Origin: Trichoplax sp. H2
Taxonomy: Eukaryota
Assembly: GCA_003344405.1 (NCBI GenBank)
Contig: NOWV01000019.1
Location: 372,001-436,000 of the forward strand
Reading direction: 5' to 3'
DNA length: 64,000 nt
The notes below the pieces were generated by a model. It made no database searches. It saw only the letters and a list, made by a program, of their open reading frames with translations, and was not told the DNA's origin. Position 1 is the stretch's first letter. The number at the start of each line of letters is the position of its first letter. Made by a program: the position numbers and the translations under genes. Shown one piece after another: positions 10,901 through 64,000 of this stretch.

Positions 10901-12060
10901 GTTTTTTTATTTTCATTGCTAAATACTTCCAGGACATAATTACATAACATTTATGCTCTTCCTATTAAAAATATTTTTTAAAATTAAGCCATGCTAATAA
11001 CAATGTACGCTGCTTAAAATTAAATGACAATAGCTGGTAGATATGGGAGCTACTGAAGCGGAAGAATTTTTGAAAGCAAGTAATGCCCAAAGGTAACTGT
11101 CCTTGAGGCACACTTTTGCTTTTGGCATGATTATAACATAATGGACGCATAATAAAGTAAATTTATAAAGTCCCATGAAAATTGTCTTCTAGTGCATTAT
11201 CCAAGATTGTTACGACTGGATTCCGTGCGCTAAATCTTGAATATTTTTTTACTGCTGGCAAAGATGAAGTTAGAGCGTGGACTATCATGGTTAGTGTCAA
11301 TAAATTCATGATACAGTGACTACTGCCGCACCGTGTCTGTTGAAAGAGGCAGGCAATTAGATTATTGCGAGTTGTTATGCTGTACTATCATATAAAAGCT
11401 AACCTCAGAGTACTTGCATATGTTACTATTTCGGTCGTAAACTAATTTTAGTGCTTTTTTGATACTAGAAATTGTTCTTTTAACTTGTTTTAAACTGATT
11501 TATGATGCAGTATAACTATTTTATTGTAATTTAGAAAGGTACAAAAGCACCACAAGCAGCTGGTAAGATCCATACCGATTTCGAGAAGGGATTCATAATG
11601 GCAGAGGTAAGCCAAAATTTTGTAAACTTTATTAGAAACTTTCCTTCCTTTATGGCGACTTGATTGGTATGCTAATGTAACCTTCAACTTGGTATTAGGT
11701 AATGAAGTTCGACGACTACAAAGAACTGGAATCCGAAGCTAATGTTAAGGTATAGTGTTCAATCTGTTAAGCTGGTTGTCAGTTCGTGCATCATTAAATA
11801 TTATATTCTCAAATAAGAGGGATCGTATTGATTAATAATCAGCTCCTTTGCCAGCTTTTGAAATATAACCTCCATTTAATTATTATAAAAAGTTTTGCAA
11901 TTTTTTAGAACCATAGAGTATCATATAATGCAAGTTCCTAAATATTTTTTAGGCGGCTGGAAAGTATAGACAGCAAGGCAGAAACTATACAGTGGAAGAT
12001 GGGGATATCATCTTCTTTAAATTCAATGCAGGCGCCGGTTTAACGTCGAAAAAGAAATGA
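7919..12060 (+). CDS. OLA1: Obg-like ATPase 1 (OLA1/YchF), 17 exons: 7919-8016, 8784-8854, 8982-8993, 9122-9182, 9282-9348, 9453-9513, 9698-9789, 9879-9905, 10010-10066, 10180-10257, 10489-10586, 10745-10826, 11034-11092, 11193-11289, 11535-11606, 11699-11749, 11953-12060
   Basis: Spliced translation [42 protein letters not shown]...[22 protein letters not shown]...[23 protein letters not shown]...[25 protein letters not shown]...[25 protein letters not shown]. Splice phases are consistent throughout. Confidence 0.97.
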
Positions 12061-30400: not shown

Positions 30401-30510
30401 AAGGTAAACAAACAGCTGGCTTGCAACCGAAACATGAATTACCAGATCAAGCCGCCACTTTAAGGCGTCAAAATATATCTTCAGGCGACCAAAGGTCATC
30501 AGAATATTGA
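24420..30510 (+). CDS. Sp-family C2H2 zinc-finger transcription factor, Sp1-4 class; exons 24420-24485 and 28867-30510 (~569 aa)
   Basis: Exon 1 [27 protein letters not shown] splices in phase 0 to [20 protein letters not shown] (Sp box). Q-rich activation tracts, Btd box [10 protein letters not shown], and three fingers with [30 protein letters not shown] and RSDHLSKH, which match Sp1-4 signatures. Confidence 0.95.
29662..29717 (+). repeat. CAA/CAG trinucleotide repeat encoding polyglutamine (a second Q/H-rich tract lies at ~28930-29085)
   Basis: caacaacagcaacaacaacaacaacaacagcaacaacaacaa within the Sp exon. Confidence 0.9.
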
Positions 30511-35648: not shown

Positions 35649-38600
35649 ATGAAAAGGAGAGAATCGGAATATGTAAGTTTTATTTTACGCTGTTTCTTTT
35701 GCTGTGAAAGATGGAGTGATAATCCATATCTGCATTGGGTGAACAATGCTTTCGCCTGTATTTTTACTCAAGGGAATGAAATTTGCTGTATTCAATCTTT
35801 AAATATAATCACCTATCTTCTCCCTTTGGATGAGCTAGAAAACAGAAAGATAAAACACAGCTAGATAGATAGGATTTGATCTGTTCTTTAATTCTCTTCG
35901 TTCATCGGGATCTATTTTTATCCTCTAAACTCATACACAATTACTCTTTGCCTTACGATTTTTTTTATTCTACTGCGCTTTCTAATCGACAGTAATAAAT
36001 ATTACTATTCTGATTGAGGTATGAAGATGTATTCTACTCTATCCACAGTCTTAGAGAGCTAATGATAGGTTATTTTGTGATATCGGTATATTTAGTCAAC
36101 AGAAACTGGATTATAATCCCTTTGATATTCAATTTCGTGTATAGGAATGAGTCATCTATACTTGAGATATCTCTACAATTATCCTATTCAGATAATAATA
36201 AATCTTGTGGTCTCCGATTTTAATAGATGAGTGTAGTTTACATGCCATTGAAGGTTATTCAACTATCTTTAACTTGATCTATAGCTTCTTATTTCGGACT
36301 AGGTAGAGCAATATATCGAAGGAACTTGATAGAATAATGCTATTCAAGTAATTTACTTTCACTAATGGGGTAGAAACAGTAAATTTAATATTGTAGTAGC
36401 TCATTAGTCGGTACAATATATAATTTTCTATAACATTGAATTTCCTTTAGTCTACAGTACCTACATAATTAATTGCGTTTTAAATCGATTTACCAGTAAA
36501 TACCAAGTTAGTACCGGTAATAATCGTCCTTGAAATTAAATCATTCCTTAATTTCAGGTCTGATGGGGATTATAACATAGAGTTGGGACAATTCTAGTTA
36601 CTGTTTTATCTGTGCAATGTACAGTAGTATTATCTGATTTATGGACTAGTTGGCTATGGTATAACAGTATTTCATCTTGTTTCCTTTAGCTGTAATGATT
36701 AAAATTTTTAGATACTATGTCAATCTATTTAGATTAACATAGTATAAATTCAATTTATTTCAAACGGCTTGATTATTCCGTGACTGAAATATATCCAAGT
36801 AAAGATTCTTAAAGGCTTATTAGTGATAGAATTAAAATTTATCTTTCCTATACCAATTTTCTTACTCTAAAGAATGCAACATGCATATTATAAATTTAGC
36901 TTATGGAGCACATAGATTAATATTGGGCTTGTGCCGAGCAGAATAATATTATTTCTAAAGCATTGGTCACTTTCTGACCGACAAAGTTCTAAAATAGACT
37001 CTTATCGCTCATCAATGCTCAAATAGGTTGAGCCCTTCTTATCGGGTTAGTTTCAGATTTAATTTCAATTTCCTTCAAAATATCGGCACCTTCTATTGCT
37101 TGGTACTGCATGATTCTAGTGGATAATTATAATTGATTACTTCGATTTTCTGATCTTTCATATTGGCTATTATTTGTTATCCATTCTAGTGCTAATTATT
37201 CTACAAATTCTTAAAAAAATAAAATATTTGCGCAGTATCGTTCGACAAGCTCTAAATCTGATGATTTCAATTTTGACTTTATTGCTACATTTGATTAGAA
37301 CGTCCAAGAAGAACGCCGAACTCGCTCGAAATCGAAACGCACTATTATATGGATAGTCATTGCCCTTACCATTTTAGCGATAATTGCAACCGCAGTAGCG
37401 CTAGTAGTCGTATTGAGAGGTAAATTATTTCTACCTTGTATTTGCATGCGACATATAATTTTTTTGCTTGCAAAGTGATGTAAATACAAGTACTAGACGC
37501 AGAAATAGGCATTGTATCGCAAGCCATTATAGAAATAAGAATAGTATAGCGTAAGAAAATATTTCATGTTAGTAAAGGTGCGCTCAAAATACTATGAAAT
37601 ATTGCAATGCTGCGTACAAACGAAAAAATTATTGTAGTTTCTTTTGTAAAGATGAAAATAACGGCTAATAGCTTGAGGTACAGAACTGGACTACTTCGAT
37701 GAAATATCATATCATAAGCAAATAATTCGCATGGTTAAGGAAGTAGCTTAAATAATCTAAACTAAGGAAATAAATTTATACGTAAATGAAATTATTATAC
37801 AGGCTAGAAAATAGAGTCAAAAATTATCAAAGTGAACCGAATCTTAGACAGATGAAAGTCAATTGAGTAAAGATGATATATTATATACTGTATCTAAGAA
37901 TATAGTCGGTTAATATCCTGAAATTTTGATAACTTTATGGGGATAAAATTATAGGAATAGAAGCGAATATTAAGTATCCTACTAGCACAAGATGAGCAAG
38001 TATTTTATACAGATGAAAGATAATAATTCTAGGAAATCTTGTACATGTATAATATCTGTACGGGAATATATTTGAACAACTTGAAGCTTTAACTGTAAAT
38101 GAATATACCGTAGTCCATGAAAATCTTGTACAATTAAGAATAGAATCAAATATTGTATGCATTGAGAATATCTAATTAGTAGAACATTATCAATCAACAG
38201 ATCAACTGACAAACAATAATCAATCAACGCAACCTGGCTTTAGCTATGAAGATATGTTTAGTTCTTTATACCAATATCAAGGCTATGATGTCTTCTGGCA
38301 TGATGGTAAGTTATTTTACAGTTATCCAAGACTCTTTTATTTGTTCTGATAGTTTCTATCACTATTACTAATGCGTTGATGAATGTAAATGAAATTGTCC
38401 TATAGATGAAATTTATTCTTATAAAACTACTGGTGGTGATGTTCGTAGTCATAACTCCAAAACCACTAGTACACAAAATGTCATTACGCGAGCCTCATTG
38501 GTAAGATTATTTACATTTTAAATGCATACTAATGGTGCAATAAAGAGTGGATCGATTTTTTAATTTAATCTGTTTTATCTATCCAGAGCTTGTACTCAGC

Positions 38601-41600
38601 TACGAAGACTTGGGTTAGCCCTGATCGTCAATTTGTCTTGCTAGCTTATGATGTCGTTCAGGTAAGATTTGCTTTCATTTTAGTTATATTTATCTTGCAT
38701 TACTAGTGTTATAATTCATGATTGAGCTTGAATGGTTGGGTGTAATTAGATTATTTTTAGCGGCTACATAATTAAAAAGTAAACTTTTAATTATATCAGC
38801 TTTGTATCCATTTATTGGGCTATCAAGGTTAATTTATCCACATCAAAATGTGGTTGGGATATAGGTGTCCTATTTTAAAAGAGTTAGGCGTTTTTAAAGT
38901 GGCAAAATAAATTATAATTAATAGAAAGCCAATAGATAAAATCCTTGATATCCATAAATTAATGCATGAATCAGCGGCAGTAATGCTAATGGTACGATGC
39001 TATTTAGTTCGGTTTTACTTTCGTAAGTGCAAAGACTATATTTCAATTTGGAAAACCTAATACACGAGCGTATGATAATAATGCGCTAAAGCATACTCGT
39101 ACGAGTATCAAATGGACTTTAGTTAAATTAATGGTCTAATGTAGCTGGTGTTGAGATTAATTAAGGCTTAAAGAATAAACCAAGATAAAAAAGCATCATA
39201 GAGCAGTATAAAATGAAACTCTTGGAAAATAAGATCTATTAATTCGTTATTGTATTGATGCATTTCCATTTATAGCAATTTCGTTACTCTTTTCTTGCTC
39301 GATATGTGGCCTACAGGATTTCTGACCAGTAAGGATTTACGCTGTTTGAATGTTCCAAATTGTGATTGATATCCTATACAACCTGTTTTTGACTTTATTG
39401 ACCTAATGGGGTATTATTAATTTTTTTCTACAGGCGGTTCTTTCCTTTAGAACCGTTAGGTGTTGGAAGATTGCTATCTTATATGGGCTGGTCAGCAAGT
39501 GGTCATCAACTGGTATGATAGTTATTTCTAGAGAAATGTTTCCCTCTTTATAGGGCATTTTGAGTACTTTGCATATGCAATTTCGAAATTTTTCCGTAAG
39601 AGCATAGCTATCGAAATGAGTAGTAAACGAAGGAAACGTTAAAACCAAACTGAGAACAATTTTAGGATATAGCCTGAATGGATAGTGGTTGATTTGATCC
39701 GATTTGGTTTGTTTCATTTCTAGTCTTTTGTCTATAATAATGATGTTTACCTTATTCCGGATCCTGCAGTTGGTTCACCAATTCGATTTACTTCTGCTGG
39801 TAAACCTGGAGTTGTTTTCTATGGAGTACCTGATTGGATGAATGAAGGTATGGTAGATATTCAATTTAAGTGAATTGCCAAGAAGAAATTTCTCTCTCGT
39901 CCGACATTATTCATCAAAATCAACCTTAATGCATTATTTGAGTACATTTTTGCTTATTGATATCAAGTTGATGTTATCTTCTATTTTATAGAACAAATAT
40001 TAAGATCCAATAATGCAATTTATTGGTCCAAGAATAATGCTTACATAGCTTTCGGATTCTGGAATGATACTTTTGTTCGCCCTTCCAATCGATTACATTA
40101 CAATCCCGGTCTGTCTTACGCGTCTGTTCATAATATTCGTTATCCAAAGGTAGGCATAGCGATTGCTGCTTTATGTGTTCATGATGACATTATAGCCTTG
40201 ATTTTCCTGCTCAGCGTCATACCCAGTATTCAGAATAGACGGATTCTAGCTAAATATTTTCGTCTTTTCCCTTCGTCACTATCTAATACTGGTATAAAAT
40301 GTTTCCCGTCGGCATGTTTCTATAGTATTATATGTTGACGCAGCAACTTACCGTCATTGATGGAATTATTATTTAAGTCCAGTACTAACTATTAATTAGC
40401 TAGAATCAGATCTTCACAGACATGATATGATCATTTAATCCTACATGTACTAAATATGGTAGTTTACCTATTACAAAGCATCGTCAACTTGTAGCTATTT
40501 TTTAAATGATTTTAGATATTTTTAATTAAAGAGTTTTTAAAATATCGTATTTTGACTTTATTTTTGATACAGATTTTATTCCTTACTGTAATCGCATTCT
40601 ATCAATATTTCTTCACATTGAAGATAGTTTATTTGCTGCGTTTTCCGATCTTTTTCCTGATTTTTGATTTATTTGAAATGAGCTTTAAAATATCATATCT
40701 TGACTTTCTTTATTCTTTAATTAATATTTTAATCCTTATTATAATCGCATTCTGTCAATATTTCTTCACATTGACGATAATTTATTTTGCATCTCCAGGT
40801 AGTATAGCTAAGTGTTATAAAGTGTAAAGTAGAGTAATCCTATCTTCTAATATAGCAAGCCCTAACTTGATTGCCGCCTTGTCTTTCTATTTTGCTAGTC
40901 TGGCGATACCAATCCTTTAAATCGTGTTATTGTTGCTAGCTCAACGAATCCTGCCAATGGTTTTGCGCTATCTGCTCCTGCAACTTATGCAGGGTAATAG
41001 AAATTAAACTGATCTAGGATAACTAGAACTGAATAGAAAATACTAAATATTACCTTTGACTTCTTATGGATGAATTATTTTAATTTATTTTTTAGCCAAT
41101 TTTACTTTACTAATGTCAATTGGGCTACAAATAACGATGTTATTATTACCTGGATGAATCGAGCCCAAAGTTCAACTACGGATGTTATATGCAATGCTGT
41201 TACTAGGCAATGCCGTACTGTAAGTTTTCGGTTCTCTTGTAAACTGCTATTCTTGCGTTAATTTATAATTTATTGATATCCTATCGCCTATGCATCTATG
41301 GACTGTTTAGCTAAGTAAAACGGATATCACCAATGGCTGGGTTAATCCGTTCTATGTAAGTATTCTATACCATAAGATAAGAGTAGTTTAGTGATGTAGT
41401 CTATCTAGTAAGCGAATGCATTCTGCACCCGCTACAGTACCTAGTAGTAATAAAATTATTTTCTTATTATCCACTTTTATCCATCGTGGCTCATATTGCC
41501 AGCCGGATCCAAAATTTAGTTCGGATGGCTCCTATTACTTGCAACTTCAACCTAGAACTGTTGCAAGCTCCGAAACATATTATCATATTGCCAAAATATT

Positions 41601-44600
41601 TACATCGGTATGTAATTTTTTGGTTAGAAAAAGAATGAATTCTTAATCGTCGAAGATAAAATTGATAAAGGTTGTCGATAGGTAATCCGTAATTTTAGTT
41701 TTCTATGTTTAACCTTCATTTCTTGCAGAACGGCACTAAAGTCTGGATAACGTCAGGCAGTTTCCAAGTGACTGAGATTTATTCGCTAGCAGAAGCCAGA
41801 AATTTTGTGTAAGTGAACACCGCATCTGCCATCAATTTATAACTCCATGTTATAGCAATAGAATAAAACTCGTTTATTGAAATCATTAGACCAATAAGTA
41901 AATGAATTTGAGCTTAACCAATGTACTAACAAAGATTTTCATTGCCGTGATTTACTTCAGTTATTTCCAAAGCACGGAATATTCACGTGTTACAAGACAT
42001 ATTTACAGGTAAATTTTCAACCAATTTCCACTCTCAATTTATGATAGATTGGATCTTTACGATATTCTACTTAAACGATTTGAAAAATTGCTCAATAATT
42101 TCTTCTTATTCGCTTTTAATAACTCCATTACAATTTAGTGTAACACTAGATGGAACCAATGTCAGAACTTGTATCTCATGCAATTTCAAAGCTTCTAGTA
42201 AGCTTCTTATTTATAGTTTGTAGTGTCTTGCTTACTGGATCAAATGGTCTTTAGTCGATGCCTATTTGTATTATTTTGAGCTTGATTTGTCTGCTTTATG
42301 GAAGTTGATTATCATCAGTGTGAAATAGCCTTATCCAGAGAAGATTTCTAACTATTCTCATGACTATCAACTCTAGGCGTTTGTTCTTATTATTCAGCGT
42401 CGTTTAGTGCCCAAGCATCTTATTATATCCTCAACTGTTTAGGTAGGAATCCGCAAAAAAAGTTAATTTTAAGGTAGTAAACACCTCTAAGGGTATCATT
42501 TATAACTACACTGTTTCTTTTCTTTGGTAGGACCAAGCATACCTAAATATTATTTGGTTGACGCTGTGGCTAATAAATGTAAGCTTTGGGAGGATTATCT
42601 CTGTATGACCTGAAATAAAATTTTTAGCAAGTTCAAACATGAATAATCTTGATCTTTATTCAACATTTATAGCTACTGTTATGGAGGACAATCATGTTGT
42701 TTCTGAAAGACTGGCTAAGAAAGATTTAGCAAGCACCACATTCTACACCTTTACCAGTGGTGGTTATGGTAAGATTACTATATTGTTCTAATTGGAGATT
42801 TTGAAATAAAAATAGAGGAAATATAAACTGATATAACTGAATCTGTAAAATAAATAAAATGCAGTATTAATTCTTCAGTATCTCTATACTTATTCTACAG
42901 ATATTAACGTGGTTGAATACCGTCCACCTTATTTTGATATAACAGTTAAATATCCAGTGATTATTTACATGTAAGTCAGACAGTTCGCTAAATGGCTGTC
43001 GAACTGAAGATGTTTAAATTTTATAATGTAATGCAGTATGCGAATAATTTATATTTTATAATACGAGCATGTGAGATATATAGCATCTGAAAGAATACTA
43101 ATCATGATGATCCTCTTACTAAACTTAGGGATGGAACACCTGACAGCTCTGTGGTAAGATAGTACACATTGCTATTGCTACTAACTATACAGAAATAATT
43201 CTGTGACGATCGTTGCTACCAATGAATTATTTGTGTTCTACAAGAATGTGCTTAAAAAACATTTAAGAATTTATAATCAAGGCTAATTAAAGAGTCTCCA
43301 TATGACTATCTACAGTAATTAAGTTTAGCTTGTTTTTATGCCCATGAACATCATTAATTGATAGTGGTACATAAAGAAGATTAATAACTTTAAGTCCGTC
43401 TTTTGATTGAATGATCTAAATCACAAAATAAGAAATAAAGTAATTTAAATGTTCGTCATGATTAAGGTGGATACACGATTTCAATTGGGCTTTATTCAAT
43501 ACCTTGCTTCCTCAATGAATATTATTGTGGCACGCATTGATCCGAGAGGTACAAAAGGAAGTCAGAGAAATGAGTATGTATCTTATCATTAAGCTCTCAA
43601 ATAACCTTTACACGCAATTTAAGACCTATAAAAACCAATGTCATTTCGTACTCCGTCTTTTATAGATTTACCTATTCCGTCTATCGAAGATTAGGATTTG
43701 TTCAAGTCCTTGATATTGAGAATTATGTCACGTAAGTACTTTTAGAATTCGTTTTGCATTGCCAATTATTTTGTCTGGTGTCTATTCTATTAATTATATT
43801 TTGTGAGATTAGTAGAAGATGTTAATATCTTAAATTATACTTTATAGTATATAGTGCCAATATACTTTTACCGACTATTTATCTGCTATCCATTCTATTA
43901 ATTCTATTTTGTAAGATTAGGAGAAGATATTAATATCTTAAGTTAAATTTTATACTGATATACTTTTATCGGCTATTTATCTACTGTCTATTCTATTAAT
44001 TCCATTTCGTGGGATAAGTAGAAGATAATAATTACTTAAGTTATACTTTATACTGATATACATTTGCCGACAATTTACCTGCTATCTATTCTATTAGTTC
44101 TGTTTCGGAGATTAGTAGAAGATGTTTATGTCTTCAGTTATCCTTTATACTGATTGACTTTTACCGAGTATTTGTCTGCTACCCATTGTATCAATTTCTA
44201 CACTCTTATTTCATGGGATTAGTACAAGATGTAGATATCTTAATTTACATGAGGTGTTTATCAATTTTCCATATTAGGTATTTAAAGACGCAAGGTTACG
44301 TTGACACTGCCAAAATAGCAGTTTATGGCTGGGTATGTATGCCATCGAATAGCATAGATAGAATTTTTAAGCGACTGATTCTACTCCTATCGTCATTGAG
44401 TAAAGAATTAAAAAGTACACATATAATACGAATTAAATGCTACTAAATAAATGGTATAAAAGATAGCTTGAAAGACGGAGTTGATTTCATGGGCGGAGTA
44501 AAATCAAACGCTTTAAAGCTTTAAAGTAAATATCACTGATAATAATATTATCCTAGGGATATGGAGGATATCTTTCAGCCATGACTGTTGGATCTGGTAA

Positions 44601-46248
44601 AGCCAAGGTAAAGTTGGGAATTGCAGGAGCGCCAAACACCAACTGGATATTCTATGGTAAGAAATTTACTTAAATCAGATGCTCATTTAACTTGTAAATT
44701 ATTTACTAGTCTATATTAATGAATGAAGGATTGGTTAATTTTAAAGCTGGTGGTATTTCGAAGCTAGGTTGATGCTATGAACCTAGTTTATAATTGCTTG
44801 ACTTTTTCATAATTCTTTACTAATACCTTACAATTTATTCAATACTTCTCCGCATGTCACTTTTATTTACCGGAAGTGTATTTAATCTTTCTTATTCATG
44901 TTTGTCTAATTTTGAAATTTTTTTTTATCACTCGTTGCTTATTCTACATCTATGTTATAATTTTTTCATTGTATTTTAGTAATGACTAGATTTTTAGTCA
45001 AAAATAGGTACTACTAGTTTTAATGTGGAATCACGTTACTGCTTTATGCGATGGTTTATTCTATTCCTTTAGTTAAGAATTTGTTTCGTTTTCGATTTTA
45101 TTCTGTTGCTATTCATTGGAATTCGTTTTGTTTTTCTACTGCTCGTTTTTGTTACTATCTCATTTCAATGGTTAAAGAATAGACGCAACTCCAAGTTATA
45201 CATTCTAATTGCTTTACTGAGTTTTCTGATTTGTTTTACGCAGCATATGAACGACCAAAGTGTATCTATTCAGCATCAATCTATTTTGATCGTAGTCTTT
45301 AACCCTCTATTCTTAATTTAAAAGTGATTTTATTTAATTTCTATACTGAGACCGTGTTGTAAAGCTGTTAGTTAATGGCTATCTAATACATATGTTAATT
45401 TATTTTCTCAAATTGTGATAAATTCAATTTCTCAATAACAGATTCCGTCTATTCCGAGCGCTACCTCAGTACTTATGCTATTAATCGCCAAGGCTACGAG
45501 GTATGCTATTTTTCAAGTTTCATTTGTATTAATTACTTTAAAATTTGGCTTGATGACAACAGAAATGATATCCATAAGTAGCTGATATCAGTACAAAATA
45601 ATTCCATTCTGTAATCGTGGGTCAAAATGTTCTTCTTTATTAAGACTTTTGCTATTTATATAATATGGATATATAGGAGGCTTCGGTCCTGAATAAAATT
45701 AGCGGTTTTGAATCCTCCGATTTTGCCATTGTCCATGGTAGCTACGATGCAAATGTCCTATTTCAAAATTCTGCCAATTTAATTAATAAGCTGCAAAGCG
45801 AGGATATTAAGTTTAGAATGCAGGTAATGAATCTTTGACGTTGCGTTGGGTGAATAGCTAGGTCAAGTTTACTAAGCTAATAATATTATAAACAATAAAT
45901 TACGTTATTTTCTGAAGTCATCCCATTATTGCTAACTTTATAAAGTGAATCAGGTCGTCTTGGCTATTTTATAATGCGGCAATGATATTTTGCTTCTTTG
46001 ATGAGTAGATTGAGGAGCAATTTCTTACTGATCTCTTAGATTCAAAATCAATGTTTTGCAGTCATAGCCTTTACATTATTCCTTCATCAACAAAGTTAAT
46101 AAATTTATTTATTATCAATTCCCTTTCGTTCTAGACTTATATCAATCAAGGCCATGAAATTACAGACAATAAAACGATGCATCATATGTATCGCTTTATT
46201 ACCGAGGAGATTGTATCCTCCCTTGGCGTTCAAAATCCGATTCCATAA
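35649..46248 (+). CDS. DPP4-family (peptidase S9B) type II membrane protein, paralog 1, ~28 exons; predicted catalytically inactive (GWGYGG)
   Basis: Exon 35649-35672 MKRRESEY; TM exon from 37299 (KRTIIWIVIALTILAIIATAVALVVVLR); WVSPDRQFVLLAYDV; QFRYSF; GVPDWMNEEQIL; YPKSGDTNP; TWMNRAQ; IDPRGT; KIAVYGW|GYGGYL; YDSVYSERY; HGSYDANV; last exon 46135-46248 YINQGHEI...stop. Confidence 0.92.
40540..40790. repeat. Intronic two-copy ~150 bp duplication
   Basis: ccttact/ttat..taatcgcattct.tcaatatttcttcacattga.gata is repeated at ~40581 and ~40734. Confidence 0.7.
43780..44240. repeat. Intronic degenerate tandem repeat, ~100-110 bp unit, 4-5 copies
   Basis: Recurring ctattctattaatt...gattagtagaagat.ttaatatcttaagtt...tttatactgatatacttttaccga.tattt.tctgcta. 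Confidence 0.8.
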
Positions 46249-46794
46249 GTAGTATTGAGTATACTTACTCACGATGGAAGTATACAATATACAAAAACGT
46301 CTTCATCATAAAACGTCTTCATCATACTCTCTAATCTGCTTATTATGTATGCGATCTACTTTATTCCATCCTGTTGGTCAACTGTTAGAGGCGTATCCTG
46401 CTAACTATTATCGTCGACACTTAGTGTTTCTGTTTCTTGCAAAGCCAAGATAATTATTAATTATGTTTAGATCTTACATAAAACAATATGGATGATAATC
46501 CGGATAACATTTAATTTCATTAATCGAGCTTAAACTATCACTGTTGGTATAATTTAAGGCAAGCTTTTTTTGATAACTTGGCTCCATATCATTTCTTGCT
46601 ATCAATATGATGTTAATACCCAGATATTTCCTTAGTATTATGATTGTATTTTTGTCTACGTGTTTTCAGCTATTGAAAGTTTATACGTAAATAAGCTATG
46701 TTGAGTTGATTTTGTTAATTTGATATTTAGTTTAACAGTTGAAAAATATTTTTCCTATCAGTAATGGCCTCATTCGATGTTGATGTTAGTATGT

Positions 46795-48022
46795 TTATAG
46801 AATTCTATAGTTTTATCCTTCTAAAGCCGTCTTATCACTTATCGCATATCCGTATAAAATATCATTAAAAACGAGGAGTTGCAAAAAGGAAATTAAAAAA
46901 TTGAATTGAATTGGTATAGCATGATGCAACCGTAAACTTGAATCATCCTATCGTATATTAATAGCAAAATGATTCTTTCTCTGAGTAATAACCTCACTAA
47001 GTGCCGATGTGAGTATGCCTAGGGAATTTTATAGTTTTACCTACCTTAAACAATATCTTATTTCTTATCGCATAGACGTACAAAATATCATTGAAAACGA
47101 GGTGATTTTAGAAAGGAAATGAAAAATTGAATTGGTATAGACTGATGCCAATGTAAATATGAATTACGTTATTATATAGCAGTAGCAAAATGATTATTGT
47201 CTCTCAGTCATAGCCTCACTGGATGCTCACATTAGCATAGCTAGAGAATTTTACAGTTGTATCTGCCTAAAGCCATATTATTATTTGTCACATATCCGTA
47301 CAAAATATCATTAAAACGAGGCATTTTTGAGAAAGGAGTTGATATTATTAAGAAAGGAAATGGAGAAACTGAATTTAAATTAGTATAGCATAATGTCCAT
47401 GTAAACATGAGTTACTTTATCGTATTGCTGTAGCAAAAAAGTTCTTTTCTATCAGCAATAATCTCACTGGATGTTCATATTAGCATAGTTAGAGGATTCT
47501 ATAGTTATATCCGCCTCAAGCTGTCATATAGCAATAGCAATTGCTACCGTCCAAGTACGAAATCCAGTCATATGTGTTTTGATGTGCTATGTTTTTCATT
47601 CCTGTGATTGGCCGGGCAATCCTGGCCAATCTCAGGAATGACCGGCCAATCTCAGGAATAACCGGCCAATCTCAAAAATGATTCGCGATATTATTTGTCG
47701 CATGTCCGTCTGAAATATCATTAAAACGAGGTATTTTTAAGTAAAAAGTTTACATTATTAAGAAAGGAAATAGAGAAACTAAATTTGAATTAGTATGGCA
47801 TGATGTCCATGTAAACATGAATCACTCTATCGTATTGCAGTAGCAAAGTGATTCTCTTCTATCAGTAATAACCTCACTAAGTGTTCGTATTAGCATGATC
47901 AGAGAATTCAATAACTTTATCCGCCCAAAGTTGTCTTATTACTTATCGCTTATCCATCTAAAATATTATTTTTAATTGAAAACTAGTCATTTTTAGAAAG
48001 GTAATGAAAAATTGAATTCAAT
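46795..48022. repeat. Degenerate tandem repeat, ~225-250 bp unit, about 4.5 copies, interrupted by an insertion at ~47525-47685
   Basis: Recurring agaatt.tatagtt.tatc...cgcatatccgta.aaaatatcattaaaacgagg...aaaggaaat...tagcaaaatgattct...taacctcact at ~46800, 47025, 47245, 47495 and 47903. Confidence 0.85.
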
Positions 48023-54056: not shown

Positions 54057-57000
54057 GACGATTTTCCGGAGACTAAAGTCCAGCGAAGCAGCGGTATTAG
54101 TAGGACGACAGTCCTTGTCCTTATTGTGATTATCTTATTAGTAGCTGCAGCTGCCATTACCGCTGTCGTTGTGATCATGAAAAGTAAGGCAATATTAATT
54201 AAGATGATTAACGTAGAGATTGAGAAGAATTATCAGGATAATAAACAAGATAAATAAAAGAATGAGTACATCGTTAATATCGACTTTTGTAATGCAAGCG
54301 GTATGGAATTATGTTTGTCAGTATATTTTTTTACTCAGTTTGAATGTAAGACATCATTAGTATAGATAGTTTTAATGCAAATGGGTATGCAAAGATGCTT
54401 ACCAGTATAATTTATTAGCTAGGTTGATTGTAAGAATACCTAGCTTAACGACGAAGCAAAAATTCCTTTATTTATTTATAGAGTTTTTTTTTCAGTTTCG
54501 ACATGTTTCATTGTCGTGCTCTATACTGATAAATCTATTTTATGTATGCCTATGTACTAAATGATAGCTTGATGGCCTTGCTATTCGATATAATGATGAT
54601 GATATTTCATCTATACATGCTCCTGTTCATGATCATGATTTTCCCTCGTAAATTGCAAAAATATCCCTCAGGATGATAGTATTATTTTAGGAACGTTGCT
54701 GTCTGTATATGTTAGTTTTAATTCAAAATGTAATCTACTATAAACTCCTAAACTGGATCTAAGCTGTAGGTAATCTCAGTGTTTACGGAAGAGCTGGAAA
54801 TAATATAATTAGATTATAGAATAACATTAATTTGCTGGCAGAAAGAAGTCCCTTAGACAAAACATGGTAATAAACAGATCCTTATGAGTTCCTAATTTGA
54901 TGGAATTGATATTTTGCATCAAACAGCGCTACTGAAGAATAAATTAACTAAATCAATGACTAGAATAAATAAATCCCTAGGGTAAATATAGCAATAAAAA
55001 GGTTTCCACCTCCTCAATACCCAATAGCTTTGATACTTTAAAATTAGGATAACATTAAAAAAAAGGTTTAACGAGAAGTTATTGATACAGGAGCTAAACT
55101 TTACGATCTACGTCACCTCTGAGAATTATTTTGATAAAAATGAGCATACATTGATTAAGTATTGCAATGGACCTGTCTGATTCTCCACAATACAACCAGG
55201 AAGGATTAACTAGAGTAATGATAAAATCTTTGCTTATGAAATATCCATTTTTCTTAGTTTAGATGGATTATATTTTAAATTTGTATTCTTATTGCCATGA
55301 AGTGATTATATAACCTTAACAGTCTAAAGTAAACTGTACAATAGCTACAAAACAGTAACTGTTTCTTAAATATGCATGATCCTTTTCATGAGAAATTGGT
55401 CAAGATTACAAACAATTTAAATGTCATGATTGAATAAGAGTAACTAGTTAATGTTGTCGGGATCATAAGTCATTACTTTCTCAATAGTTTAATATCGTAG
55501 GTAATAATTATTTGGAAATAAAGGGGGATTTTCCGCATATCCTTTAGTAACTTATCTTCTGTCAAATCACTAGACTAGAAAGGTTCTTGATTTAATCCGC
55601 TACTTCTAACTATAGCGGATATCGATGATAGCATTACTCTTATACTTTGGGAAGATCCAGTTATTTTTTCTAGCTACGTGTACAGTGGTTATCACTGATC
55701 GCATCAATCACATAGCTAGGGTAGATTTTGTAACTTTTCTAGCTATAATGGTATCGATGATCGAATCAGTCACATAGCCAGAACAGTTCCGTTATTTTTT
55801 CTAGTTATAGTAATTATCGATGATCGAATCAGCTATATACCTAGAGAAGATTTCTTTACTTTTCCAACAATAGGGCATATAGATGATCGAATCAGTTATA
55901 TAGCCAAAGTAGAACCCGTTATTTTTCAGCTATAAAGATTATACAGTATATATTATCAATAATTGGATCAGTATTATAAATAGGATACACTCCGCTATTT
56001 TCTAGTTACAGCAGTTTATCCACGATCGGATCACTCATATAGCTATAGTCGATTCCCTTGCTTTTCTAGCTATAATAGTTATCTGTAATCGGATCAGTTA
56101 TACAGTTCGGATATATCCCGTTATTTTTGTAAATATAGTAGTTATTGATGATCGAGTCAATCATGTAGCTAGCGTAGATCCTGTTATTTTTCTAGCTATA
56201 GCAGTTATCGAAATCGGATTAGCCACATAGCTAGAGTAAGTGTCGACATTGATCCTCTTACTTTTTAGCTATACTACATTGTTTATCGACGATCAATCAT
56301 GTAGATAGGATAGATCTCATAAATTTTTTAGCTATTTTAGTTATCGATGATTAGTCGATATAAATGGAGCAGATCCCGTTATTGGCATTCTAGAATGGAG
56401 AAAATATGCACATCTCCCATGGTACCGATGCGTACCATCGCTGATGATTGACAGCAGCATTTTTCTGCCCATAATTAATATCTATATTGATCTTAGTAAG
56501 TGAGTAAACATCTTTTAACATTACCATTGGGTTTATTGATCAAACTGCAAGGTAAATTGGAACCAGTTGTATTTATTTATTCTGTCATAGTGTCCCCATC
56601 TTGCATCCTATCATTTACATTAGAGCTTCCGATCCACTTTGCTATCGGCTTGTGAACTACCTTACGATATTGTAGTATTCAGTAAAGTGTTTAANNNNNN
56701 NNNNNNNNNNNNNNTTTCTAGTTACAGCAGTTTATCCACGATCGGATCACTCATATAGCTATAGTCGATTCCCTTGCTTTTCTAGCTATAATAGTTATCT
56801 GTAATCGGATCAGTTATACAGTTAGGATATATCCCGTTATTTTTGTAAATATAGTAGTTATTGATGATCGAGTCAATCATGTAGCTAGCGTAGATCCTCT
56901 TATTTTTTAGCTATACTACATTGCTTATCGACGATCAATCATGTAGATAGGATAGATCTCATAAATTTTTTAGCTATTTTAGTTATCGATGATTAGTCGA

Positions 57001-60000
57001 TATAAATGGAGTAGATCCCGTTATTGGCATTCTAGAATGGAGAAAATATGCACATCTCCCATGGTACCGATGCGTACCATCGCTGATGATTGACAGCAGC
57101 ATTTTTCTGCCCATAATTAATATCTATATTGATCTTAGTAAGTGAGTAAACATCTTTTAACATTACCATTGGGTTTATTGATCAAACTGAAAGGCAAATT
57201 GGAACCAGTTGTATTTATTTATCCTGTCATATTGTCTCCATCTTGCATCCTATCATTTACATTAGAGCTTCCGATCCACTTTGCTATCGGCTTGTGAACT
57301 ATCTTACGATATTGTAGTATTCAGTAAAGTGTTTAACGGATCGATTTTAGTGTCTAGTACCGATGATTTAGGCTATAGAGAACACAAATTTGTATTTATT
57401 TACTATCCAAGCTGTACCTGATGTTGACATGCGGTGGAATGTTGGATTTCTTATTACCAAATTGATATTAATTATTGCCTATTGTGCAGCCATACCAGTT
57501 TTAATTTTCTCAATTCTACGTTTACGTATATCATTTATTTAAGATATTTCCAATGCTGGTATGATAAGCTTCAGTATTAATTTGAACTGTATAAAATACG
57601 AATAGCTGTTGATTAAATACAAAAGGAATATTATTTGAGCCAGTATAGAATTAGAATCTTATTATTGATCTACTACAATTTAAAATAAATCTCTTGATTG
57701 ATCATAAGGATAAATAAAGGCATCACCCGGCAAAATGATGTCAAAAACGACTAAGATCATTATTATTGGCCTGAATTGGCTAATACGATATACATAATAT
57801 ACTGGAACTACTCCATCATTTTCAATTATTTATTTACATCCTAGTAAACGTTAATGCAGATCAAAACCTTTTGCATGGATCTGATTCTATGCTAAAAATA
57901 AACTACCATCATTAACCTTATCGATACCGATATTGTGCTATCAAATAGCTACAATTCTTCTATAAACTGTTTCTATAATCGTTTTCCTTGTAGCAGCTAT
58001 CTCCAGCTATGTAACCAATTGAAAGTTATTTTAATGCCCACTCAAAGTTTTCATTACCTCTATTCGCAGATCAACAACAAGCCCAGACTAGTATGCCTAC
58101 GCCAAATAATTTCAAAGGCAAAGTCTTTGGAATTAGTGAATTGTACAATGGATCATTTTATGCTCGATCAGTATATGTCAGTTGGATAAGTGGTAAGCTA
58201 ATTGATTATCAAGCAAATTCTACCCAATTGAAGGAATAATATAATCAATGGATACAAGCCTTTAATCAATTTCACACTTTAACCTTGATTCCTATCCGTT
58301 GAATATAGATACTTCCTACGAGTACACAGACACCAATGGCGATCTCGTCGAGTACGATGTATCCACGAATACTACCAAAGTCCTATTGCCTTATTCGCAA
58401 AAGGTAAATATAAACATCTACCAGACCGTAGAAAAATAGTGTCGGTATTTTGGGTTATGAAATGTGTTCTTAAAATTATTTTCTTTTTCAGAATTTGCTC
58501 AAGATAGCAAGATCTTGGATTAGTCCTGATGGCCTATTCTTACTTCTATCCTATCAAATGAGATATGTAAGCTATGTTACGATGGCCATTTTGGCGATGG
58601 ATATTGATGGCTACCAATCTGCTAGAATGAATCGTTGTTCTAATTGATATTATTGCTTCTATTGAAAATTCATAGCTCTATCGCTACTCTTTCTATGCTC
58701 GCTACATCGTCTACCGAATTTCAGACAAGTAAGTTGATTTTTGAAGCGCTAGAGTGTCGTTTTATGTAAATGGATAGTTATATTTGGCAAAAATCGTCAT
58801 AAGAATATGGAGTAAATTATCCTTCACTAATAAATTCATAGCCATAGCCATAGATTAACATAATCGGAACGTATTCACATATCAAGAAGATAGTGACTGT
58901 AAAATCATCTAATTTTTTTATTATTTTGCTTCAAGGCAAATTTTCTACTTGGAGCCAATGGGAAGTGGAAAAGAATTAAGATATATGGGTTGGTCAGCAA
59001 GTGGCCATAAATTGGTAAATTCTATGAGCGTTGAGTAAAACTTGAAGTTTGATGATTTTGTTATGCAAGAATGCGAAATGAATATGGATATGCAGTTTCC
59101 CCCAGCAATTTACTAATTTGGAACTGCTTAATTTCTAAGTGTTACAATCTTACAGTGTCATACTATTGAAGTATGCAAATTCTATAGATTTAATAACGCG
59201 ATGCATCTTATGTTCTATTTCAGTCTTTCGTTTTTGGAAATGATGTCTATGTTCTATCCGATCCTACCAATGACAAAAACATGGTGCGATTAACGACCAC
59301 CGGTGTCGATAAAGTCGTATTTAATGGTGTTCCTGATTGGAACAACGAAGGTTTGTTGCGATATTTGGATGTTATAAATAGAATTCATCAGTGTGTAGAT
59401 TTGGTTTCGTAAATCGTTAATCTTGTACAAAGATGAGATGAACAATTTACTCATCGTCGTAGAGTTAAAATAATTCATTGCTCCAAATTCATACCGTACT
59501 GAACGTGGATGAACCTTATATAGATCCTATTGGATCTTAGATTAATACTAAAAAAGTTCGACTTCTTAGCTTCTACAATATTGCGATAAAATAAAGCAAT
59601 TATCTTTCATATTTATAGAGGAAATTTTAAGTAGCAACAATGCCATCTACTGGTCCAAGGGTTCTACCTATGTGTGCTATGGTTCATTTAATGCAACTGG
59701 TGTTGGATCTGCTCACTGGGTGTTATACAATGGCAAAGGTTCTTATACTAGCATCGTTAAAGTTCCTTATCCCAAGGTAAGATCAGTTTTTTTGATCATA
59801 GCTTAATAAGGTTAAATTCGATACTTCGGTTGATTTTAGAAATGAATATTTCCGCGATAATTAAATTTCATCAATAATACTCCATTTCATTCAGAGTGGT
59901 TCAATCAATTCCAAAGTAACCATTTATGTCACTAAAGCCAACGATGCTGCTACTACCCTTCAATTAATGCCACCAACCGATTTCCTTAACGGGTAATCCT

Positions 60001-63000
60001 TTTTCGGATATAATCAATTATTAGGTGTTCTATTTGCCGAAAGATTTAAAATTAAGAGTTAAACTTTATTTGGCTATGAGCACCTGAAGAAATGATTAGA
60101 TGAAAAGTGTACGCGTAGATTAGTATTGCCTGCTGTATAGGAGGACATTTTGTGATATTTCCACTTGCATTTAAATTATAAAATAGGGAATATTATTATA
60201 CCAACGTAGTCTGGGCTTCTGATACTGTGGTCACTGTGACTTGGCTAAACCGATTCTCTAATGTCAGCGCTTTAATGTCATGCGATGCTACCAATGGTCA
60301 ATGCAGAGAAGTAAGTAGTTAATTTGAAAGGTTTCTGCAAAAGCCTTGCATAGATATTCAGGCAATAGGCGAAATTTCATCCTATTTTATTTGTGAATAG
60401 GGTAATCATCGAGTATTAGAATCTGCTATCCTTTAGCTTGATAGATAATTGCGTCAGTGCAACTTATTTGGGATAGTCATAAAATTTTGGGGAGTAGCTG
60501 TTCTATCATGTACAATGTACATAATATCATATCAAAAGAAATTAAGATTTTATGTAAGAATAGTTCTGAAACTGGATAGATGACAATCAAGTTGCTACTA
60601 TGATATCATTTGTTAAGGAATGCAGCGAACGTTGCATTGCCAGAAGTGGATAATTCCTTATACATGTACATTACATAATACCAAAAAATGCTGATATAAT
60701 CCTTTTTTAAGCAAAATTATGGGCTACTTCGAATATTTAGTGCATCTAGTAGTCCATGCCTGAGCAATAATATAAATACAGCGGTATTTGCATAGGAATG
60801 CTGCTCAAATCATATCGATGGCAGCTAAAGAATATTCTGTACACGGATACGTTACATATTTTAGAATTTTTTCTGCTAAGCAAATCACGCTGTTCTAGAC
60901 TAAATGGTATGATAGTTCACGTTAAAAATTGTTGTAGTCTCAAGATCGTATTGCAACCGGCAGTAGATAACAAATTCCTAATTTGGACTTCATAAATGCT
61001 TCAAGCTGGTGATTGTTACCAGACTTAATTTGATATCGTAACATAGACATGCTCAAATGTTTCTGTCGGTAAAAGTAATTTTAGATTAGTTTTATTGTTG
61101 TATTTTACCACTAGAAGAAATTGAGTTTCACATCCAATATGATATATACTACGAGGATATGAATAAGCACAAATTGTAAAGTCTACTCATTTATAGAGCT
61201 AAAAGTAGTAATAGATCAGTTGCAAACTATAAGTAAGTTCGCATTAGAATGAAACAATTGTAATTATTTATCTGTGTTTAGATCAATCGTGTATCTGAAC
61301 CTAATGGATGGATCGATTATCACTACGTAAGTCAGAAATTGCATCAATCAAAAGCTTTAAAATTTATTAAATTAAGTACTGATTTTGAACGATATAGTAT
61401 AGCCCAAAATTTACCACGGCTGGTGATTCCTACTACGCAGTTTTACCTAGGAAGGGATCTAGCGGTAAAAGCTTTTTCCATCTGGCTAAAGTCTCTCTAA
61501 CGGTAGGTTGCAAAGATTTTAGAGTTTACTTACTCAGTATAATAAGTGGAATAGTCTACATTGATTCTATGTCAGAGCTAGGACTGAACTATAGCATTTG
61601 AATTCATTGCCGTGTTTTACATGCTTATACTTTGTTATTGCGTAAGTTCTAACTTAGATACAACATATTTTGCTGTTCAATTTATAGAATAGCCAGAAAA
61701 CTTGGCTAACCAGTGGAGACTGGCATGTTACAGTCATTTATGCTTACTCTGAATCCAGAAATTTGCTGTAAGTTTTGCTGATTATTAAATTGATGCGTGA
61801 ATATTTCATTGCTTCTACTTGGCCATGGCTGATTGAAGGTATTTTAAATGCTGATCGTTTATTATAACTACTAGTTTCTTCCAAAGTACTGAAAAGGGCT
61901 CTATCACTAGGAATGTATACAGGTAACATAATGACTATCAAGCTAGCATCATAGCGGGTTACCTGGTATAGGCTAAATTAATAGTACTTGCGGCTTCCTT
62001 AATTTTATAACATTATAAGGTACAGAGCTCATTCATAATTGATGAACATATTATTTACTAGTATCGCCACAGATGGATCCAATAAGAAATGTTTAAGCTG
62101 CAGTGTTAGGCCAAGTAAGGCTCATGAAATCCCCACTCAATAGCGATTGCATTCGTATTCTTACTCTTGCAAATATCTTAATTTTGTTTCATAGATGAAT
62201 GTGAATATTTTACTGGCTCTTTCAGCTCAAGTGGTAATTACTACGTACTTGGTTGCAGAGGTAAGTTCATATTTCATTAACTTTCTGCTATTGAATAGAT
62301 TATTCCATAAAATGATATTACATCCGATGGATACTTGATATTAGGTCCTGGTATTCCATCTTACCAAATGATCAATTCTATTACTGGAGCAAGTAAGATC
62401 TCATTAATATTGTTTCGAACGATTCACTAAGTCCAGAATATTGTATACCGCTACCTAGATATTATTTACGACAGTAGCATATCTAAATTAAAATGGTTTG
62501 ATTCTCTTACCTATGACTAGCCTTCGTGATGGAATCTAATGAGCGACTTAAGAATGCTGTTGCAAGTATCACTGTATCCACCCGAGTTTATGGGGAATTT
62601 GCTCATGCTGGCTTCAGTAAGTTTTTCCGATTCAATATGCTAATGAGTATTTCAGCTACGATAGCTAGCTCTAGCTGGAATTAGAAAGGGCGTGATACAT
62701 TGTCATTTATTGATGTAGCTGTAGCTCCCACATTTAAAGTGCAGTATTTTAATTTAATTAACGTGGTTATCTACGATAACTCTGCTACTTTGGTAGTTTA
62801 AACTTTCTATTTATATAAACCGATATCGCTGGTAGATTTCTAGTATCGAAGTAAATGACGATTACCACAATATTCTGCAAAGTCTTATTTGCACTAAACA
62901 AAATCATTGAGGTGGATTTCCAGTGATCTAAGTAATGATTACTTTAATATTCTGCAATGTCTTACTTGCCCTTATTGAAATTGTTTTAATTACAGTAATA

Positions 63001-64000
63001 GATTTACGGTCATCTAAATGATAATTACTTTAATATTATCGCTCTTATAGAAATGATTGTACCTTCTTTTTGCTGTCATTATACGATATCTAAATATTTG
63101 TTGTCATCTCCATTAATAAGAAATGAACTATGTTATGTATCGTCCCCCTGGATTTGATGCTTCAAAGAAGTATCCAGTCTTTATGTATATGTAAGTCGAG
63201 CTATGATATAAAATAAACAGTTCGAATTTACCGTGATAGGAAATACGTTAGTTACTCTAAATATTCTTATCTGAAATTTCATAGCTACGGAGGTCCTCAA
63301 AGCCAACGTGTAAGTATTCGAAAATATGTAATAGGAATTTTATCTAGCTTAAAATTGCCAAGATATAAGCATTAAAATCAGCCGAAGCAATATTAATATT
63401 TTAAAGAAATGTTATTATCCCAATTATAATTTAATGGCTTATAGGTAAACAAAGAATTTGGTTTAGGCTGGGCAGAATACTTCTCGTCCTACTTGAATAC
63501 TATTTGTATCGTATTTGATCCTCGTGGTACCGGCTATAAGAGCAATGAGTATGCAAGCTTTAAGCGGATGGACTCATCTTATAATAACTTTAATAAATAC
63601 ATTAATTCCTATTTATTGATCGTCTACTGTGATTTCATTAGATTTATGTACAGCACTTATAAGAAATTGGGTGTACTGGAGGCTCAAGATGTACAAGCCT
63701 TTGGCCGGTAAGTATTTTCGGCCATGCATAAACCAATTGGACGAACAATGACTAATTTATAGCATCCTTGGTTGATCGTCATGTAAAAATCTTTGATTCA
63801 ATGAAATGTAGTATAATAATGAACAGTAATATGAGCTAGCAAAAATTGGAAATGTACATCTAAAATCTTAACTTAAGGCGTGCATACCGATTAGAGCTTG
63901 TGAATAGATTCAATGAGGAATAATAGCTAACGTATTATCATACTATAACAGATATCTGCAAACTCTGCCTTATGTTGATGGTTCTAACATGGGTGTCTTT
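54057..64000 (+). CDS. DPP4-family (S9B) type II membrane peptidase, paralog 2; partial (first exon uncertain, 3' end beyond the window)
   Basis: TM exon from 54057 ([27 protein letters not shown]); [77 protein letters not shown]; the window ends at [16 protein letters not shown] just before GW-S. Intron positions match paralog 1. Confidence 0.92.
55600..57020. repeat. Intronic ~60 bp degenerate minisatellite (about a dozen copies, partly re-represented after the gap)
   Basis: Unit approximately gatcccgttattttttctagctatagcagttatcgatgatcgaatcagtcacatagctagagta. Confidence 0.85.

Follow-up and report, generated by a model that had tools for sequence, protein, structure and literature searches.

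A DPP4-family gene of Trichoplax sp. H2 (hereafter gene A), lying in a window of 64,000 nucleotides (the whole stretch of DNA that was analysed), is a duplicate from a four-gene placozoan DPP4 cluster that has lost the catalytic Ser, the oxyanion Tyr and one of the substrate-anchoring Glu residues. It is probably an independently evolved pseudo-peptidase, with a different, non-cutting job at the cell surface. Judging from its residues, the protein is almost certainly devoid of serine-peptidase activity, and this loss of catalysis very probably occurred separately from that of vertebrate DPP6 and DPP10, though the same Gly and Asp were reached.

It is a puzzle what DPP6 and DPP10 need their large, inactive enzyme domain for, given that the transmembrane (TM) region suffices for Kv4 binding and that back-mutation restores no activity. 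The same two changes, separately evolved in an animal in which no Kv4 was found, separate the inactive ectodomain from any role at the channel and make a ligand or partner testable. The novelty is limited, since Ser-less DPP4 homologues evolved repeatedly, and the function of gene A is one that we infer. We found no published account of a placozoan DPP10-like gene or of this Trichoplax DPP copy in a search of literature that included few subscription papers.

Gene structure and transcription

The product of gene A (Table 1) is identical to P0049, the Trichoplax sp. H2 record RDD45067 (780 aa). An earlier note on this DNA had set the start of the gene at 39830; the actual start is at 35649, which adds seven upstream exons and the beginning of exon 8. 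The note had also taken the gene to be intact, with its TM anchor and splice sites remaining, and so it proved: the 28-exon frame is open, spliced and transcribed. Spliced contigs occur in three of four RNA runs (three studies), while run X8 holds only unspliced low-depth pieces, with no joints. A contig of run X10 spans 40147 to 46133 with 1395 letters in between, a length equal to that of predicted exons 10-27 added together; this agrees with the 44332/44557 junction, for which the note had proposed a cDNA check. Junction 39847/39992 is present in RNA. At the codon positions of Ser, Tyr547 and Glu206 the RNA contigs list no alternative letter. An exon 3 acceptor at 38180 was ruled out, as RNA places the start of that exon at 38201.

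Gene A has the Pfam domains DPPIV_N and Peptidase_S9 and a single N-terminal TM segment, as expected of a DPP4-like S9B fold, and its predicted structure (pLDDT 93) superimposes on DPP4 with a TM score of 0.88 and an rmsd of ~2.1. The fold, the membrane anchor and the dimer residues are retained.

Table 1. Coordinates of gene A, its diagnostic residues and its paralogues (window positions unless a contig is named)
Feature	Position	Strand	Remarks
Gene A, DPP4-family (S9B), 28 exons, 780 aa, type II membrane protein	35649..46248	+	all GT-AG, one terminal stop
Exons 1-7	35649-35672, 37299-37419, 38201-38305, 38406-38500, 38587-38661, 39276-39328, 39434-39512	+	
Exons 8-14	39724-39847, 39992-40149, 40899-40993, 41096-41219, 41311-41355, 41503-41607, 41729-41808	+	
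Exons 15-21	41961-42008, 42139-42197, 42377-42442, 42531-42578, 42673-42768, 42901-42970, 43129-43153	+	
Exons 22-28	43467-43573, 43666-43731, 44278-44332, 44557-44656, 45442-45500, 45677-45823, 46135-46248	+	
Exon 2: TM anchor preceded by a short, basic cytoplasmic tail	37299..37419	+	helix 21-55 in model
Arg143, equivalent of DPP4 Arg125	39282..39284	+	kept
Gln227 (CAA), replacing DPP4 Glu206	39994..39996	+	DWMNE/EQ; Glu205 equivalent Glu226 kept, split by intron 8
Asp558 (GAT), replacing oxyanion Tyr547	43130..43132	+	context IM/DGTP
Gly642 (GGA), replacing catalytic Ser630	44557..44559	+	paralogues TCC
Triad Asp718	45746..45751	+	kept; neighbouring Ala719 replaces conserved second Asp
Triad His750	46153..46155	+	kept
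Paralogue B	58070..64000	+	past window end to G000:C230:437303; TM exon near 54060-54185; Ser, Tyr, EE intact
Paralogue C	C230:440367-447465	+	outside window
Paralogue D	C230:363822-356810	-	outside window

Active-site residues

The nucleophile elbow reads GW/GYGG (the slash marks the intron), as reported before: GGC TGG ends at 44332 and, after a 224-nt GT..AG intron, GGA TAT GGA GGA begins at 44557. The changes from YGGP to DGTP (at 43130) and from DWxxEEE to DWMNEEQ (at 39994), as well as the retention of the catalytic Asp and His, were likewise read correctly. The Ser loss is not a matter of chance or read error, because the Ser codon differs from that of the paralogues by two base changes (TCC versus GGA) and the T. 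adhaerens record carries the same three residues. Alternative splicing that would restore Ser was also considered and rejected: the intron 24 region holds 13 AG, seven of them in frame, and all except the true acceptor hit stops.

For the residue comparison, a family set of 198 proteins of 500-1300 aa was followed by 187 rows from the database whose cover was 72% or more; replacing five Trichoplax records by four genome models gave 191 rows. Of these, 81 were omitted, their place in the tree being non-animal, and 110 were compared. Tyr547 is retained in 84/85 Ser-bearing rows versus 2/22 Ser-less rows. Measured against an active DPP4 or FAP, gene A has the triad Asp and His, lacks the Ser of GWSYGG and Tyr547, and has an incomplete Glu205/Glu206 pair; with nucleophile and oxyanion Tyr gone, the earlier view of the protein as non-catalytic is almost surely right. 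Additionally, the pocket equivalents of Arg125, Glu205, Trp629, Tyr631, Trp659, Tyr662, Tyr666, Asn710 and Val711 are kept, a retention that exceeds that of each of the seven vertebrate DPP6/10 rows. Gene A deviates at 22/102 conserved columns versus 12-15 in paralogues B-D, which is also compatible with relaxed constraint.

Given His750, Asp718 and most of the pocket, one might suppose that gene A is still a hydrolase, its His-Asp pair and the new Asp activating water in the space vacated by Ser. We consider this very unlikely: the oxyanion Tyr is gone, and PMC4350108 and PMC4873792 describe DPP10, which shares the Gly and the Asp, as inactive and not revivable.

Origin of the catalytic loss

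Trees and the AU test were built on 42 hand-picked rows of the 191, among which there is one full vertebrate-type DPP4 (hagfish), one partial record and no row identified as sponge or ctenophore. Gene A groups with the three placozoan paralogues that bear Ser (support for this clade 100/100; for A with B and C 99/96), and the tree of the hydrolase domain alone gives the same placozoan clade (100/99), against a mosaic origin in which a DPP6/10-type hydrolase was joined to a converted propeller. The AU test rejects the union of gene A with DPP6/10 (five vertebrate rows) by 119 log units (p 2.8e-47), and the sister of vertebrate DPP6/10 is an amphioxus DPP6-like protein, P0057, with Ser and Tyr intact (95/93). 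These S9B results set gene A apart from DPP6/10, in line with the independent origin proposed earlier. A true DPP6/DPP10 orthologue predating Kv4 could be read from the public record name ('Inactive dipeptidyl peptidase 10'), from the top PDB sequence match (DPP10, 407 bits versus 394 for DPP4) and from 6/27 shared DPP6/10-derived residues (at most 5 among 82 Ser-bearing rows). Nevertheless, the trees, the AU test and the Ser-bearing amphioxus sister contradict it, 3/6 of the shared residues are also found in paralogue D, and between 2 and 9 of the 27 occur in further rows without Ser; such orthology is highly improbable, and the database naming of gene A as a DPP10 orthologue is corrected.

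Neighbouring paralogue B retains EEE and YGGPQSQ, as the earlier note had it, together with GW/SYGG, and its intron positions are those of gene A; the close resemblance claimed between the two neighbours did not hold, since they are only 40% identical. A predicted complex of A (270-780) with B (230-710) had weak support, at 0.44 versus 0.00 for the best control (contacts agreeing at ≥86%, partner pLDDT ≥80). The complex-score mark was reached by 51/78 solved and 2/108 mismatched pairs, but scores of 0.60 or less include just 5 of those 78 and every one of the 4 mismatches that pass. We draw no conclusion from this score, DPP4 dimers being already solved, the chosen fragments lacking some of the dimer interface, and A and B belonging to different cell-type modules.

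Among the 110 rows there are 14 further non-vertebrate Ser-less DPP4 homologues, and Ser-less DPP4s have at least five separate origins in animals. Gly occupies the nucleophile position in 11/22 Ser-less rows, and Tyr547 is lost in 20/22, with Asp there in eight. A speculative, rather unlikely reading is that Ser to Gly and Tyr547 to Asp do not reflect decay and are a selected refit of the DPP4 pocket to a ligand-binding site, acquired separately in placozoans, arthropods and vertebrates. If so, the placozoan protein would show the purpose of the dead site of DPP6/DPP10, in an animal with neither Kv4 nor neurons. It would also be the earliest-branching dead ectopeptidase that serves a brush-border-like membrane of digestive cells in the role of an ancillary subunit.

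Constraint and conservation

RNA contigs of gene A show 7 synonymous versus 2 non-synonymous differences (3 including the T. adhaerens record), that is, a pN/pS of 0.09-0.13 (binomial p 0.001-0.002), computed from 9-10 differences in assembled contigs with mutation bias ignored. The earlier note had named neutral evolution or lack of expression as grounds against its reading; what was found is constraint (pN/pS ~0.1) together with spliced RNA. A single-copy orthologue is present in 4/4 placozoans (PMC10580291 supplement 4). Relative-rate tests were mostly not significant, one of 12 reaching p<0.05. The hydrolase-domain branch of gene A is the longest of the four paralogues (1.14 versus 0.23-0.57), as a decaying, functionless duplicate might have; with the open 28-exon frame, RNA spliced in three studies, the constraint and the orthologues against it, decay is extremely unlikely.

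The three residues were read in Trichoplax only, and the Hoilungia and Cladtertia orthologues, Hhon_g07405 and PlH23_008900 among them, may retain Ser, the H23 gene being labelled FAP. Three homologue searches and the 50% representatives gave no orthologue sequence from other placozoan genera; one search gave 78 other hits (24-37% identity, bacterial where named), and a metagenome scan gave six loci (26-27% identity). In the protein atlas there were DPP4/DPP6/DPP10 clusters only.

Kv4 and other channels

The idea of a Kv4 auxiliary subunit, put forward in the earlier note, fails because a search of the genome found no Kv4: seven T1/BTB_2 matches are, by reading, Kv3-, Kv2- and Kv1-like, three KCTD-like and one without a readable frame. 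Searches with PF11879 and PF11601, run without a positive control, gave no match, and the published count of Shal genes in Trichoplax is 0 (PMC3519636 Table 3). The juxtamembrane/TM segment of DPP6/10 binds Kv4, according to PMC4873792 and PMC9409431, and a motif scan of this region found RNW[KR]G, typical of the DPP6/10 type (5/5 such rows, 0/3 placozoan and 0/2 DPP4 rows examined), to be absent from gene A. In all likelihood, the product is not a Kv4 subunit. An auxiliary role for another channel (Kv1, TRPA1, TMC) has in its favour a Kv1 in the pan-epithelial module of T. adhaerens and TRPA1- and TMC-named genes in the H23 gland module; the missing motif, and 0/28 voltage-gated K-channel rows in the four modules of gene A orthologues, make it quite improbable.

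Cell type and proposed role

In published single-cell tables, where gene names are human best hits, the gene A orthologues (OG_6577) belong to gland (digestive) modules in three of four placozoans and, in the fourth (H2), to an unlabelled module of similar content, with membership scores of 0.71-0.78 that express co-expression, neither contact nor exclusive expression. Other DPP4-type rows are in lipophil modules (10/10), so that, after duplication, catalytic loss accompanies a shift from lipophil to gland cells. Module mates by name include GGT1, ANPEP, ENPEP, trehalase, cubilin-like and prominin, a set that we liken to the hydrolases of the vertebrate brush border. An SLC6A5-named transporter occurs in 3/3 partly read modules; SLC6 genes make up 71 rows, so one per module weighs little.

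On this basis, the protein would reach the digestive-cell surface as a dimer, without cutting peptides, and might there assist a membrane protein without catalysis, as its ancillary subunit or scaffold, through trafficking, stabilisation or the holding of peptides beside it. Candidate partners within the same gland programme would be the SLC6 transporter with which it is co-expressed (Tadh 50950 in T. adhaerens) or the M1 aminopeptidases (63983 and 63982), on the model of collectrin/ACE2 and of aminopeptidase N with B0AT1, and PMC3408045 and PMC5600382 give precedent for peptidase-transporter complexes. We propose this partner or scaffold role tentatively, by analogy; an SLC6 transporter as the specific partner is doubtful.

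The retained pocket, as well as clathrin, PICALM, cubilin-like and cathepsin genes in the same module, would also suit a peptide trap or receptor whose dead site binds X-Pro peptides (food or signalling) and then protects, clears or internalises them. However, the Glu pair of DPP4 anchors the substrate amino terminus (PMC4350108), Glu206 to Gln takes away half of that anchor and should weaken X-Pro binding, and the cytoplasmic tail has ~22 residues; we regard a trap, or the receptor or decoy that the earlier note had suggested, as unlikely. Less likely still is a surface protein that adheres, or binds mucus, matrix or microbes, through its propeller: the modules also contain DMBT1-like, MAM-LDL, mucin-4-like and spondin genes, and DPP6 and DPP4 ectodomains promote adhesion (PMC9409431), but an active DPP4 could do the same, which leaves the residue losses unexplained.

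Comparison with known systems

Like vertebrate DPP10 and DPP6, gene A encodes a type II protein with propeller and hydrolase domains and keeps the triad Asp and His; its DGTP is that of DPP6, and DPP10 has the same Gly at the nucleophile and an Asp (Asp568) at the Tyr547 position (PMC4350108). Unlike DPP6/10, it keeps Trp629, Asn710 and Tyr666 and loses Glu206 (DPP6/10 do the reverse), is of separate origin, lacks RNW[KR]G, belongs to an organism in which no Kv4 was found and has digestive instead of neuronal expression. With DPP4 and FAP it shares fold and domains (and placozoan paralogues share the GW/S intron), and with DPP4 an association with a brush-border-like hydrolase set; it differs from both in having neither nucleophile nor oxyanion Tyr and in the loss of one anchoring Glu. 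Ser-less proteins of other lineages resemble it (sea cucumber P0088, spider P0104, beetles P0118/P0154, hemipterans P0089/P0174, orthopteran P0122); the beetle and millipede proteins bear the DPP6/10 motif. In fly DPP10, both the Ser and the activity are retained (PMC4873792).

The service of B0AT1 (SLC6A19) by collectrin/ACE2 and by aminopeptidase N offers an analogy only, from unrelated folds or families, of a surface hydrolase, active or dead, helping a membrane partner. SLC3 heavy chains and neuroligins, again of unrelated folds or families, are further partners of the dead-hydrolase type that work without catalysis.

Gene structure and active site

Rebuilt from the window, gene A (the DPP4-type S9B gene under study) has 28 exons, GT-AG introns throughout and a single terminal stop, with the exon-3 acceptor (38201) set by RNA; its 780-residue product is identical to P0049 of our homologue set (RDD45067, Trichoplax sp. 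H2) and one residue apart from T. adhaerens TRIADDRAFT_60461 (P0001). The rebuilt gene and its alignment uphold the change from Ser630 to Gly642 proposed in the earlier note, and the changes from Tyr547 to Asp558 and Glu206 to Gln227 also stand, as does the retention of the triad residues Asp718 and His750 (DPP4 numbering partly after PMC4350108). Equivalents of Arg125, Glu205, Trp629, Tyr631, Trp659, Tyr662, Tyr666, Asn710 and Val711 are kept as well, and a peptide trap is a possible, if rather unlikely, role for the protein. The Ser codon position reads GGA in gene A and TCC in its paralogues, and none of the in-frame acceptors of intron 24 restores Ser; that a protein with this active site is an unusual hydrolase seems very improbable. 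The AlphaFold2 model (69-row alignment) has a pLDDT of 93, a TM helix at 21-55 and a TM of 0.88 against the DPP4 structure. The observation is real: gene A is a folded, anchored and expressed DPP4 copy without the nucleophile.

The contig (C230) carries four DPP4-type genes whose introns fall at identical positions, D upstream on the reverse strand, then A, B and C. The last two and D all retain Ser, Tyr547 and both Glu, and gene A is 40% identical to B, 42% to C and 37% to D. The public models of B, C and D (P0002, P0050 and P0055) are mis-predicted, with faults across them of intron read-through, missing exons, a wrong C-terminus or, in B, an absent TM exon; clean GT-AG models exist for G000:C230:430070-437303 and 356810-363822.

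Features of the window and its flank (window positions unless a contig is named)
Feature	Position	Strand	Remarks
Gene A	35649-46248	+	
Repeats, intron 23 of gene A	43740-44250		degenerate tandem, units near 75-80 bases (by eye)
Repeats downstream of gene A	46740-47980		degenerate tandem, units near 200 bases (by eye)
Early intron of paralogue B	55600-57340		degenerate repeats; near-duplicate ~600-base block around gap 56695-56714, which may be an assembly duplication
Paralogue C	G000:C230:440367-447465 (L011-L012)	+	Ser kept, motif GWSHGA, Trp659 to Phe; changed S1 pocket, perhaps another specificity, judging by sequence
Zinc alcohol dehydrogenase (ADH)	1513-2550	-	single frame, domain match
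Repeated blocks with helix-turn-helix frame	5350-7400	- (frame)	presumably Tc1-like; assembly gap 6764-6783
OLA1-like GTPase exons	8982-11310		
hAT-like transposase	12927-14988	-	two long overlapping frames, hAT dimerisation domain in second
C2H2 fingers, Gln/His runs	28744-30507	+	long frame, presumably Sp/KLF-like

Origin and recurrence

Orthology with DPP6/10 needed testing, since the best PDB sequence match of gene A is DPP10 (407 bits; DPP4 394, DPP6 382), in which Gly651 and Asp568 occupy the corresponding two positions (PMC4350108). FastTree (191 rows) and IQ-TREE (LG+C20, 42 of the 191) both recover a placozoan clade (100/100) in which gene A adjoins B+C (99/96), while vertebrate DPP6/10 are nested in bilaterians, with an amphioxus DPP6-like protein bearing Ser and Tyr as sister (95/93). 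Forcing gene A together with the five vertebrate DPP6/10 rows cost 119 log units (AU p 2.8e-47); membership of DPP6/10 by descent was rejected on this test and the placozoan clade, and the S9B phylogeny favors the independent origin suggested earlier. The hydrolase-domain-only tree keeps the placozoan clade (100/99), pairs gene A weakly with D and leaves the amphioxus link unresolved. The DPP6/10 juxtamembrane motif is present in herring, mole-rat, amphioxus, millipede and beetle rows, and a motif scan found it absent from gene A. Gene A has 6 of 27 DPP6/10-derived residues, more than any of 82 Ser-bearing rows; three of them occur in D too, and other Ser-less rows have 2-9. From these sequence comparisons, we read the likeness as convergence.

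The 110 animal-side rows divide into 85 with Ser, 22 without it (gene A, 7 vertebrate DPP6/10 and 14 others, those named being from sea cucumber, spider and insects) and 3 that are gapped at this position. Ser-less rows fall at five places in the 42-row tree, three immediately beside Ser-bearing sisters on starred branches, so an independent dead DPP4 is not rare. The curious part is the recurrent Gly and Asp outcome: Gly replaces Ser in 11 of the 22, and Tyr547, present in 84 of the 85 Ser rows, is missing in 20, with Asp in 8. Because Tyr to Asp needs one base change, mutation alone may account for part of this recurrence. The millipede protein P0119 has Asp with Ser intact (the sole such case among the 85), hinting that Asp can precede Ser loss.

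Expression and constraint

Spliced gene A contigs occur in three of the four RNA runs examined, from three studies; 15 RNA joints are among the rows listed, and 20 further rows, including 44332-44557, lie beyond these. In run X10, one 3098-letter contig spans 40147 to 46133 with 1395 letters, precisely the combined length of exons 10-27, and the cDNA check lists no alternative letter at any of the three changed codons. Within the coding sequence the contigs show 7 synonymous and 2 non-synonymous differences (3 when P0001 is included), with pN/pS 0.09-0.13 (p 0.001-0.002, small sample); the gene is neither unexpressed nor, on this small sample, neutrally evolving, as the earlier note had allowed. 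Counted against constraint, gene A departs from 22 of 102 family-conserved columns, versus 12-15 in B-D; the median is 5 in other Ser-bearing rows, and four vertebrate DPP6/10 rows reach 23-28.

Cell type and proposed function

Among the rows listed from PMC10580291, the orthologue group of gene A (OG_6577) is represented by a single gene in each of four placozoans: T. adhaerens (60461), H2 (002968), Hoilungia (g07405) and Cladtertia (008900). In the available part of that source, three of these four lie in gland-labelled modules, the H2 module being unlabelled with many gene names in common with that of T. adhaerens; other DPP4-type rows are in lipophil modules (10/10), and a DPP8-named H23 gene is in a gland module. 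Gene 64278 is B, and from their order 60463 and 60452 would be C and D. The gland module covers protein, lipid and carbohydrate degradation with chymotrypsin as marker (PMC10580291); PMC6737977 assigns digestive enzymes to lipophil cells, so which morphological cell "gland" denotes is uncertain. ADH genes 60454, 60455 and H2 002960, which probably correspond to the ADH frame of the window, are in gene A's module in the available tables, so genes nearby may be co-regulated. Module mates of the orthologues, among the rows listed, include GGT1, two M1 aminopeptidases, trehalase, maltase-glucoamylase, a cubilin-like protein, prominin, clathrin and an SLC6 transporter. We take this set to be brush-border-like, and the vertebrate brush border employs active DPP4.

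The suggested role as a Kv4 subunit was not supported. A genome search for T1/BTB_2 gave seven matches, by frame reading Kv3-, Kv2- and Kv1-like (three), KCTD-like (three) and one unreadable, and two Kv4-specific families had no match in a genome search run without a working control. Trichoplax has zero Shal genes in Table 3 of PMC3519636 and placozoans lack Kv4 according to bioRxiv 2024.12.09.627618; fly DPP10, which binds Kv4, has kept both Ser and its activity (PMC4873792). The available module table of PMC10580291 contains 28 rows for voltage-gated K channels, of which none has a subfamily D name or lies in modules of gene A's orthologues, and we consider a subunit of another channel improbable.

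On digestive cells the gene A protein would sit at the surface as a dimer, since the Tyr and His linked to dimerisation appear to be retained, and would act without catalysis. An adhesion protein at this surface is an unlikely reading; the leading candidate, held tentatively, is a protein that partners a transporter or peptidase in the digestive membrane. Gene A would resemble DPP6/10 in working as a dead S9B ectodomain, and differs from them in its separate descent.
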